The position numbers were made by a program. A stretch of 27,154 nt of DNA, from contig JBIOWP010000130.1 in the NCBI GenBank assembly GCA_044868695.1, positions 1 to 27,154 of the forward strand, read 5' to 3'. Source of the DNA: a bacterium (GTDB taxonomy: Bacteria; Sysuimicrobiota; Sysuimicrobiia; Sysuimicrobiales; Kaftiobacteriaceae). The stretch's first letter is position 1; each line of letters begins with the position of its first letter. Positions 3,001 to 6,000 of the stretch are shown piece after piece.

Positions 3001-6000
3001 GAGGAGATGGCGGCCGCCGTCGAGAGGCTTTCTTGAGGGGGAGGCGACGGGAAAAGGACGGGTTGAACCGCTACGGACACGAGGGTTGTGTGATTGAGCC
3101 CATCTTCAGCAGATACTTCGCTCCTCCAAGAACGGACTGGTGAGAAACATTTGTCACCGAGACACCGGACCGGCGACTTCTCCCCCCGTTACGAGGCCCG
3201 TTGTCGGATTCAGGCGTAGGACGACCACGGCTCCTGGTTGCAGCTTATCTTGGGAGACAAATTGCCCCCCCAGAATGAATCGCGCACTCTCTGTGAGCGC
3301 GAATTTCCGACCGTCGGCAAATGACACCTCGGATCCATTGATCGCGGCAAGCTTGCCCTGGGCTTCGCGGGCCCGCACTTCGACGATATTCACAAAAGTT
3401 CCCGGTGGCCAAGGGCTCCCTCCACCGACTTCCACTACGAGCATAACGAAGTCACCTTTGAAGACTCTGTCAAGGCTGATCGGCGTAGTCTGATTTGTTT
3501 CAACATTCACTTTCGTGACCGCCGTTCTCTCCGTGACCACGAACGTGCGTCTGGTGGACCCCAGCAGGTCAACCACAAGCTGCTGGGGCGTGCTGTTCGT
3601 GTCTACCTGCACAACAACCCCCGGAGAATTTCCCCCCTTTGGGGGTGAACTTCCAGCCCAACTCATCTGCGAAAACGCTCGGGCTGGAAGCCCTGCAGCC
3701 AGGATGGCGGCCAGAATCGATGTAATCCCGAATGTCATCCGCACTCTGCTAGTTCTCATGTATTTTCACCCACCGATTTGTCTGCCCCAGGAAATCAAGG
3801 GGTAGTCACCACCCATGAGGCATCCGGACCTCCGGACTCATGGAGCGTATAGGTTGGACTCTCAGTAAAGCACCATCCGCGGGTAAAATAATCAGAATTG
3901 GATGTAGTCAAGTTGACCCAGCGATTGTTCAGGAACACCTTCAGGAAGAGCACCGAAATCCCCACCGGACGACCAGGATCGCTGTTCAGTGATGGGCAGC
4001 TTGCGTAGGTGTACTTGAAGTAGTTCTCATGCTGCGACCACCCCCCCGGCACCAGGGGCTTGTTTGTTGTCGTCAACGAGTACATGACCTCCCAAGACCC
4101 TATGTCTTTTCTAAAAAGCAAGCTTGTGTAGGTGGTCTTGCTCTCCTGGATGACCTCCGTGAAGAAGAGGTGGGGCGTTTGGACCTCATACATGTACCGC
4201 TGGAAAAACGTGTCATCAATCGTGATCCTAGCTACAACACCGTGGGCTACGCAATGGTCCCATGTCCACACTTCCCGGAGCGTACTGGCTTGGCCGGCGG
4301 CGCGGAAGTAGGCTGTCACCGTTTCCAAACAGTTACCGGAATTCATCGCAGTGGGCGCATACAGATAGGCGACACCGGATGGAACTGGGGGTAATTGAAG
4401 CGTCAAGTGAGCTTGATGACCCCCATAGTAGCCCTTAGCGTTCTTTGCTGGTTGGGTAGGACCAAAATCTATCCCTGCCTGACCATCCCCCGGCGTGGGT
4501 GGTGAAGACACATACCGGGGAGGAGGAGTGGGAAATGGCTTAAGAACGATGTCTGCCGTTGCCCACGGGAGGAGATGAATCTCCTCTGGAAGCGCGGGCA
4601 TGGGTGCTGAAGAAGGGACGGCAAACTGAGCTACCGCCCTGGGGACGAACGACGCCAAAACAGCAACGAGGCCAGTTAGAAGCAGAACGATTACGAGCGA
4701 GTAACGAAATTGTGTCGCCGGGGTCATTGGCAATTACCATCCCGACGCTTTGACTGGCACTCATTGCATGACTCCCCGCTAGACGGTCGCGAGTATGATG
4801 TATCGTAGTCCGAAGTAGGCCAGTTAGAGCAGTTAGAACAATAATGCCAGGTATCGCTCCCGCGCCGCCTCCGGTGTGTGCTTGCCATTGAATAACCCTC
4901 CCCTTTTTGTGGAATCATTCAATGGTGAGTAAGCCTTTACCTGCCGCCGTGTATCTGACAGCGGGTGGCGACACCGGTGGAGTACGAACATACGTTGGTG
5001 GCTATCGGTTGTCGTCCTGGGGCAAAAACCTGAGTGATCCGGCAGGAGTCTCGTGCGACACTGAATATTGCTTTTACAGTGGGTTGTGGGTAGGGTGGAT
5101 GAGCGGGGATGGACTCGAACCCTCAGCCCCCTAGGTACGATGTAGGTGCGCTACCTGTTCTGCTACCCGCTCGCAATCCAGATCGTATGGCGCGCCCGGT
5201 GGGATTCAAACCCACGACCAGCCGATTAGTAGTCGGCCCCTCTCTTCCCTGAGGTACGGGCGCACCAAAACGAGGCGGGCCAGCTGTTCGCGCAAGTCGC
5301 GATCAGCCGTGCCCGCCTCGCTGTCAAGACGGAGGGGCTTTCACCGTCCCCACACCACAAGCCCTGGGGCACCCTCGATTCTAGTTGTCCACAGGTAGAA
5401 TTGTAAAGACGTACTAGTGTTCGATATATTGGGCGACACCAGCCGAAGGATTAGTGTGGCAAGAGGTGGCTAGGATCCTCTCATTTCCCATCCTCCTCCT
5501 CCTACTTGGGTTTGCCTCGCTCTCGGCAAGTACCTTTCGTGTGTTTATCTCAGCATCTGAGCGGAGACCTTGCGGCAGACGGTCTCAGATCCGTTGTTTG
5601 GATTCACGCAGATGGTATCGTACCGCCCTGAATGGCCCGGCTCCCGTTCGTTGCAGGTGGGCTTGAAGTAGTCGTAGAGCCACCACTCCAAGTCGTCGCG
5701 ATCAGATGCCGACGGCCACACGGCATACTGGAACTGGCAATAGAAATCCCTGAGTTTTCGGGCGTTGCAGGGATTCAACTCATTTTCCGGGAGATGGTCG
5801 CGCAGACGGGCGCGCAGATCAAGAGCCTTTCCGACGTAGTGGACGAAATTCTTGTCGCCGGATAGATGCATCAACCTGTAGACGCCGCCCTCCGGTGGGA
5901 CCGTGGAGAGGGAATTCTCGCTCATCGGTTGCATGCTGCTCCATGTCACGGCGAAGTTTCGCGTTCCCATGCTCGTCTCCAGTTCTGGTTCGGGGGCACT

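Follow-up and report, generated by a model that had tools for sequence, protein, structure and literature searches.

What use could there be for a tRNA that has the body of one amino acid and the anticodon of another? The window that we analyzed, a 27,154-nucleotide stretch of bacterial DNA, raises this question with a tRNA gene on its reverse strand at 5188–5263, in which an arginine-type body carries the anticodon ACU (positions 5230–5228).

Results

An Arginine-Type tRNA with the Anticodon ACU

The tRNA gene at 5188–5263 (–) is genuine and structurally intact. ARAGORN reads its anticodon as ACT, the Rfam tRNA model matches it with 60.7 bits, and the minimum-energy fold of the 76-nt sequence is a cloverleaf (–36.2 kcal/mol, z –2.4) to which none of 200 shuffled sequences was equal. 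Direct reading of the sequence revealed the acceptor strand GCGCCCG, A20, C35, U36, G73, and an encoded CCA, together with 7/5 acceptor and T stems, U33, A21, the pairs C10–G25, A19–U56, and G15–C48, and a variable loop of 5 nt. All of the features of an arginyl-tRNA synthetase substrate, given in the available text of one source (PMC9976931) as A20, C35, U36, and A or G at position 73, are present, and the long variable arm on which the same source bases serine identity is absent, its place being taken by the 5-nt loop. The anticodon is not one for an arginine codon: the codon cognate to ACU is AGU, which specifies serine. The genome-wide survey's note, which had described the gene as an ACU tRNA with an Arg-type body, is thus borne out. 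Annotation that goes by the anticodon labels such a tRNA as “Ser.”

Two other sequencing runs of that study yielded contigs that span the gene either in whole (X2) or in all but its first 2 nt (X4) without a single differing letter; in a run from a second study the anticodon is reached only at the end of a contig. A search of the genome disclosed neither a further copy nor a 3′ scar of the tRNA, its top matches there being the arginine tRNAs with the anticodons CCG and UCG (72%). A relaxed ACU/GCU pattern had no match in the 93 other genomes of the order, in keeping with the absence from that order that the survey had reported. Upstream, a sigma-70-like promoter match at 5378–5407 (–) lies 115 nt 5′ of the tRNA and is overlapped by a divergent match at 5401–5430 (+), both from a weak scan that found three matches as compared to 1.2 ± 1.1 in shuffled sequence.

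The host has five ordinary arginine tRNAs, a tRNA-Ser(GCU), and a gene for arginyl-tRNA synthetase, and AGU occurs in its genes at 2.4 per 1000 codons. For arginine it uses a tRNA with the anticodon GCG instead of ACG. No TadA was recognized in the genome, which is 95% complete, two deaminase matches being dCMP deaminase-like and cytidine deaminase-like by inspection; at that level of completeness the absence of TadA is likely, short of proof. Given that the host has Arg-GCG rather than Arg-ACG and no recognized TadA, A34 of the ACU tRNA is probably unmodified.

The tRNA Gene Lies on a Mosaic ssrA Island

The survey had placed the gene on an ssrA island, and exact repeats now define its ends. 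The tmRNA gene (ssrA), the site of integration, lies at 6561–6910 (–; 148 bits), and the last 23 nt of its 3′ end (6561–6583, –), one end of the island, recur with 23 of 23 positions identical at the other end, at 28–50 (–), the two copies forming repeat family D7. The island thus measures about 6.5 kb, and GC content is about 55%–58% across 3.0–7.0 kb versus 65%–70% elsewhere. Its genes include the C-terminal piece of a tyrosine integrase (166–561, –), the N-terminal part of which was not seen upstream; a RuvB-like AAA ATPase (820–1911, +); an HTH_17, excisionase-like protein (1908–2228, +); and a Xer-like tyrosine recombinase (2209–3036, +). These are followed by two low-GC cargo open reading frames of 201 and 312 codons (3154–4733, –), the products of which have hydrophobic N-termini and no family match. 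Flanking the tRNA pair are, downstream, a frame for a Cys-rich 64-residue protein (4724–4918, –) that resembles only hypothetical clusters and, upstream, a GIY-YIG nuclease-like frame (5545–5973, –).

The second member of the pair, a tRNA-like gene with the anticodon CGU at 5100–5172 (–), 15 nt downstream of the ACU tRNA, is degenerate, and the survey's description of it as aberrant was apt. It scores 39.3 bits in Rfam, has four broken stem pairs and no CCA in register, and its best fold is not a cloverleaf and was equaled by 11 of 200 shuffled sequences. BLAST against plasmids and phages and further searches found no relatives of it.

None of the island's open reading frames encodes a synthetase. 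The window contains no IS1-type transposase or remnant of one, a homologue is lacking genome-wide (best E 0.95), and no terminal repeats or target duplication surround the tRNA. The nine island frames contain eight AGU codons versus 24 AGC codons, and hence offer no local target for the mechanism that we propose below. With neither transposase, terminal repeats, nor an AGU-rich gene adjoining it, the window copy was probably stranded here as cargo of a mosaic ssrA island. It is most similar to a transposon-borne group described in the next section and, stranded as it is, may possibly still be active in trans.

Arginine-Type ACU tRNAs Form a Widespread Family under Structural Selection

We scanned viral contigs and species genomes for a family pattern, defined as any tRNA that has a short arm, A20, and ACU in the anticodon loop. 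The viral contigs yielded 25 matches, in all of which ARAGORN calls a tRNA, and the species genomes yielded at least 119, of which at least 102 pass a full cloverleaf filter. The family is therefore not rare, contrary to what the survey had supposed; among the matches listed it extends over more than ten phyla, Acidobacteriota being the commonest, and includes one archaeon. Nor is it united by the anticodon arm CCGA-CUACUAA-UCGG, which is exact in only two of the 123 distinct sequences among the matches listed, these having 81 different anticodon stems; the shared arm is a product of the earlier search method. A scan of the viral contigs for the exact anticodon arm gave 20 matches, none within a tRNA, and BLAST against plasmids and phages returned generic tRNA matches only.

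The structure of the family is under selection. Among these 123 listed sequences, positions 19 and 56 form a Watson–Crick pair in 121 (as compared to a mean of 82 in a shuffle that ignores kinship), the pair being G–C in 98, C–G in 15, and A–U in eight, and positions 15 and 48 are G–C or A–U in 119. At least six acceptor pairs are present in 102 of the 123, with CCA encoded in 53 of these 102, and fewer than six in the other 21 copies; A or G is found at position 73 in 90 of 102 relatives among the matches listed. The mismatch between identity and anticodon is thus retained across independent genomes.

Is the arginine identity itself retained? Among viral contigs, a control pattern without A20 gave six matches, four of them tRNA-like, versus 25 with A20. 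Twelve A34 anticodons without C35 gave 15 tRNA-like sequences among 21 matches together, and the anticodons ACA, ACC, GCA, and GCC gave three among 11, two of them distinct. In the case of GCU all 29 viral matches were tRNA-like (17 of them distinct, the acceptor stem being broken in many), as compared to 16 distinct sequences for ACU. C35 and U36 are kept in no non-arginine anticodons other than ACU and GCU, which fits selection for arginylation. ACU and GCU are also each a single mutation away from the arginine anticodons UCU and CCU.

Closest to the window tRNA among the matches listed is a group with C10–G25 that is carried by transposons of Acidobacteriota and is identical to it at 58–60 of 72 positions, as compared to 46–54 of 72 for the host's own five arginine tRNAs. 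An IS1-type transposase gene lies directly downstream in nine of the ten long-flank members of this group listed. A RelE-like/XRE gene pair is found divergent from the tRNA in this nearest group, the RelE-like member being so designated by sequence inspection, with no family match.

Related tRNAs Are Passengers of IS1-Family Transposons

To describe the surroundings of the tRNAs we used 100 loci with long flanks among the matches listed, namely, the window, 25 viral loci, and 74 genomic loci. (Six of 80 long genomic loci were dropped as not being tRNAs, and 39 short-flank genomic matches were kept for tRNA counts alone.) An IS1-type transposase gene is present in 34 of the 100 loci listed, in 29 of them directly downstream of the tRNA and on the same strand, and absent from 66; an IS1595-type gene is present in ten. 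The tie to IS1-family transposons that the survey had proposed therefore holds, even though the window itself has no such transposase. The survey had also doubted that the tie was anything more than insertion beside a tRNA, a doubt that does not survive inspection of the ends of the elements: in 17 of the 34 loci, within the 8 kb examined, the tRNA and the transposase gene are together enclosed by 18-bp terminal repeats with target duplications of 8–9 bp, which argues that the tRNA is a passenger of the transposon rather than a neighbor. Taken as a whole, then, the earlier reading stood as to the Arg-type body with a Ser-codon anticodon, mobility, structural selection, and the IS1 tie, and fell as to rarity, the shared arm, and the doubt about insertion.

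The transposases belong to the Pfam family DDE_Tnp_IS1, and their match to NCBIfam NF033558 is below cut-off. No solved structure is related to them by sequence, and a single-sequence structure prediction for one of them had a pLDDT of only 38. The same upstream slot is filled in related elements by other tRNAs, among them ochre-type leucine, Tyr-like, Thr-like, and truncated irregular ones; in the loci L266 and L268, no ochre stops that would correspond to the ochre-type tRNAs were found in frame. Most viral copies of the ACU tRNA stand alone in phage DNA.

Transposases Linked to the tRNA Are Enriched in AGU

An observation that the earlier reading had overlooked is that AGU is enriched specifically in the linked transposase genes. 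Homologous transposases were drawn from three classes and from metagenomes, and we excluded from the codon comparison near-duplicates, genes containing multiple stops, and 19 transposase loci whose upstream flank was shorter than 500 nt; one locus (L225) was placed in the linked group on the basis of a damaged ACU tRNA 4.3 kb upstream. The codon counts and a first set of tree contrasts include one locus from an unpublished genome (L234, genome G178), and the codon search set includes another (L296, genome G795). Transposase genes linked to an ACU tRNA (n = 34) have 4.88 AGU codons per gene, with AGU contributing a fraction of 0.64 of AGY codons, and those linked to a GCU tRNA (n = 3) have 4.67 and 0.67, as compared to 1.08 and 0.17 for unlinked homologues (n = 129). 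The level of other T-ending codons is similar in the three groups (0.34, 0.32, and 0.36, respectively).

The excess is confined to the reading frame: in a core clade AGU occurs 8.5 times in frame versus 1.0 in controls, and 3.6 and 2.6 times in the other frames versus 2.8 and 2.3. AGU is the most enriched codon both in the core clade and in the remaining linked genes, and its frequency is 29.9 per 1000 codons in the transposases versus 5.9 in neighboring open reading frames. No AGU excess was found in IS1595-linked, prophage-linked, or toxin–antitoxin genes. An archaeal IS6-type transposase gene behind an ACU tRNA contains six AGU codons and two AGC codons.

When kinship was taken into account, ten of 12 tree contrasts were positive for AGU (p = 0.012). 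In a second set, from which the two unpublished genomes were omitted and for which the background was widened, nine of 12 were positive (p = 0.016), AGU giving the strongest signal of 16 codon pairs, with TAT also at nine of 12 (p = 0.043). The tree-aware signal is thus modest and would fail correction for 16 codons, though the anticodon had named AGU beforehand. One clade of 14 genes supplies much of the effect, and six linked genes have no usable contrast, two of them being without any AGU. Outside the core clade the linked genes (n = 24) have 69 AGU and 78 AGC codons. Among aligned AGY pairs that contain a T, both members have T in 87%, versus 29% for other NNY codons, and the invariant serine of the RYSP motif is, outside the core clade, encoded by AGU in nine and AGC in seven linked genes as compared to 21 and 69 (p = 0.014).

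AGU Aligns Mostly with Serine but Is Itself Maintained

AGU aligns for the most part with serine, so that the genetic code is not reassigned. Across all neighbor genes the alignment partners of AGU are Ser in a fraction of 0.44 and Arg in 0.05, like those of other serine codons and consistent with the survey's observation that AGU aligns with serine; AGU was not found to mark conserved arginines, and tRNA-Ser(GCU) is present in the host. In the core clade, five columns of the transposase alignment have fixed AGU (64 AGU codons, CGN and AGR being absent), whereas drift is seen in other two-fold codons. A plain serine position would drift to the preferred AGC and a plain arginine position to CGN, which argues that it is the AGU codon itself that is selected.

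None of 101 AGU codons of the core clade lies at a column that is mostly serine in controls, an avoidance of the ancestral serine columns that tells against a pure kill switch. Lysine or arginine columns account for 12 of the 101, as compared to five of 248 TCN codons. Origin of the core AGU codons by single changes from Gly, Asn, Thr, and Arg codons would give the same column pattern. In L234 the linked ACU tRNA is built on a body without A20, a hint that it may suffice for AGU to be misread in any way.

Discussion

A Proposed Missense tRNA That May Restrain Its Own Transposase

We tentatively favor, at somewhat less than an even chance, the view that the ACU tRNA is a working missense tRNA that inserts arginine at AGU and thereby throttles the IS1-family transposase of its own element, the window copy being probably stranded. 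The host synthetase would charge the tRNA with arginine, as A20, C35, U36, and G73 suggest. Unmodified A34 would then read AGU and little else; in the available text on an engineered ACU tRNA (PMC11066159) decoding was 9.4% at AGU, 0.36% at AGG, and below detection at AGC and AGA, and the tRNA was not deaminated. Competing with the host tRNA-Ser(GCU), the tRNA would accordingly insert arginine at some proportion of AGU serine codons. The family has its main home in passenger transposons of the IS1 family, in which the tRNA lies inside the terminal repeats and usually just 5′ of the transposase gene, and these transposase genes retain AGU at many serine positions. There the tRNA would spoil most transposase molecules, and increasingly so as copies accumulate. 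The cost to GC-rich hosts would be low, AGU being rare in such genomes, as it is in the window host.

A fuller version of this proposal, which we hold with more reserve, is that IS1-family transposons with their own missense tRNA and an AGU-loaded transposase obtain active enzyme only when errors are few, so that translational fidelity would control copy number and activity and would act on related elements in trans as well. On this view the window copy would be a repressor that has become detached from such elements.

Less probable than either version, and on balance unlikely, is a role outside decoding, with the molecule acting, charged or not, as a tRNA mimic, either a decoy that draws off tRNA-attacking toxins or anticodon nucleases or a component of a structured leader by which the transposase gene is controlled. 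The irregular tRNAs that share the upstream slot, the broken acceptor stems of many viral copies, and the RelE-like/XRE pair of the nearest group would all suit such a role, and some acidobacterial irregular tRNAs are, in the text available, charged yet unused in translation (PMC5389517). It leaves unexplained, however, why precisely the cognate codon should be in excess, and only in frame, in the linked transposase. In addition, the tRNA is found on the opposite strand, 0.8–1.8 kb from the transposase gene, with ten AGU codons still present in the locus L135.

Somewhat less likely again is mistranslation directed at the host or at invaders, with the tRNA acting as a mild toxin or defense that harms AGU-richer incoming genes or retards growth, the codons of the transposase being secondary. 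Such a role would accord with the rarity of AGU in the host, the 66 listed loci without an IS1-type transposase, the solitary phage copies, the intact window copy with no local target, and the lethality to Escherichia coli of a missense allo-tRNA (PMC5389517, available text). But AGU is not clearly depleted from the passenger and phage genes of the carriers themselves, the transposase is enriched in AGU rather than protected from it, and no defense gene was shown to accompany the tRNA.

We consider it improbable that AGU is locally recoded as arginine, such that the transposase needs that arginine and the tRNA switches the element on. A helix position that is Lys or Arg in 112 unlinked homologues is encoded by AGU in eight of 14 core genes and by CGN in five, and the Lys/Arg columns noted above point the same way; the serine partners of AGU in neighbor genes and the absence of CGN and AGR from the five AGU-fixed columns point the other, and one of those columns has Gly in 121 homologues, with Ser in a relative from the IS6 family. 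Finally, a neutral accident, whether a mistake of assembly, a scar of attachment, or the decay of a tRNA-Arg(UCU) by U34A, is very improbable for the window gene and largely refuted for the family. One might cite in its favor the single mutation that separates UCU and CCU from ACU and GCU and the decayed mosaic island with its partial integrase and degenerate tRNA-like neighbor. Against it stand the identical sequence in other runs, the retention of every stem and of the 19–56 pair through two-sided changes, nearest relatives (among the matches listed) that are ACU tRNAs of other phyla rather than host arginine tRNAs, and the lack of a second copy or 3′ scar in the genome.

Relation to Known tRNAs and Transposons

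The window tRNA is a natural mismatched tRNA that has tRNA-ProX and the allo-tRNAs as its closest described counterparts but lacks the defining features of both. Like tRNA-ProX of Streptomyces and Kitasatospora, for which mistranslation has been demonstrated, it is natural, has a body identity unlike its anticodon, and has A34; as presented in the available text (PMC10404621, PMC11415595), tRNA-ProX has a proline body, A33, A15:A48, G21, and a dedicated co-encoded ProRSx, whereas the window tRNA has an arginine body, U33, G15–C48, A21, and no adjoining synthetase, and its family is carried by mobile elements in many phyla. The allo-tRNAs and polycistronic irregular tRNAs of Acidobacteria (PMC5389517, PMC7609411, available portions) are likewise mismatched or suppressor tRNAs near toxin–antitoxin and transposon genes, but they have 8/4 or 9/3 acceptor and T stems, a long variable arm, and serine or alanine identity, in contrast to the plain 7/5, type I structure, short variable loop, and arginine identity found here. 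Ochre-type leucine tRNAs resembling the tRNA2 of the allo-tRNA paper (PMC5389517, available text) fill the same slot in related transposons. The supplement of that paper, in the portion available, contains a single ACU entry, designated “tRNA2 (pseudo?),” in which the D-loop is 64 nt long, and the available text of the two papers makes no mention that we found of an ACU family or a codon link.

With other IS1-family passenger transposons the elements share GGTA-ended terminal repeats, 8–9-bp target duplications, a DDE transposase, and passenger genes; they differ in having a tRNA as passenger and a transposase enriched in its cognate codon, and no such transposon frame surrounds the window copy. 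From engineered ACU tRNAs (PMC11066159, PMC6158751, available text) it is clear that a tRNA with A34 in an ACU anticodon decodes AGU selectively in the face of native tRNA-Ser(GCU), but these are synthetic, orthogonal, E. coli-tested molecules and not arginylated natural tRNAs. In the portions available, a survey of A34 tRNAs treats those of two-fold boxes as sporadic (bioRxiv 10.64898/2026.05.15.725136), they are missing according to a review (PMC8007984), and a Ser-ACU tRNA is listed only in an algal virus (PMC4810235). Our search of the literature outside subscription journals, in such text as was available, disclosed no paper that describes Arg-type ACU tRNAs as a family or that links a tRNA to the codons of a transposase.

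Few natural bacterial mistranslating tRNAs have been described, and the reviews, in their available portions, give them no biological target. The Arg-type ACU family is widespread, would require only host enzymes, and is accompanied by a footprint that can be measured in one specific gene. The purpose of deliberate mistranslation can thereby be tested by means of a single tRNA and a single transposase in which codons are changed synonymously. If our reading is correct, missense tRNAs would be a further route by which insertion sequences restrain themselves.

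The island and its host

The ACU tRNA gene (5188–5263, reverse strand) shares its island with a core, at 166–3036, that comprises a partial integrase and another recombinase, of Xer-like type, together with genes for an HTH protein and a RuvB-like ATPase. We note that an ORF without an assigned family overlaps the partial integrase. The T arm of the tRNA (5180–5219) is 73% alike to that of the tmRNA (6553–6592), which is probably a chance resemblance among T arms. As for the host genome, CGY codons are decoded via a tRNA-Arg with anticodon GCG (contig C137, 20656–20731), and neither an ACG tRNA nor a TadA was recognized.

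Variant tRNA bodies

The acceptor stem has just 4–6 pairs in the ACU tRNA-like genes of the collected loci L113, L138 and L144, and also of L087, L093, L160 and L173; an SPFH/Band 7 gene lies directly downstream of three of these short-acceptor genes. A weak acceptor stem is likewise seen in a phage family (L042, L044, L048, L053, L056, L057, L061 and L062) that carries a single ACU tRNA-like gene, with a DNA methylase gene and its neighbor on the opposite strand. In viral contigs, Arg-body tRNAs with a GCU anticodon (L409–L437) are equal in frequency to ACU ones, and one recurring type among them lacks the 3′ acceptor strand.

Transposon-linked tRNAs

Eight of the loci (L109, L112, L115, L116, L122, L124, L130 and L143) have a gap of about 200 nt between the tRNA and the transposase start, which, as judged by eye, holds a conserved series of hairpins. 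The loop of the first appears similar to an anticodon loop, and the last apparently buries the transposase start codon.

The place of the ACU tRNA upstream of IS1-type transposases is also occupied by other irregular tRNAs, namely ochre-type Leu, Tyr-like, Thr-like and truncated ones (L236, L237, L256, L266, L268, L273, L276, L278 and L385). In a Bathyarchaeia genome an ACU tRNA precedes an IS6-type transposase (L107, 4172–5080), whose gene contains six AGU and two AGC codons.
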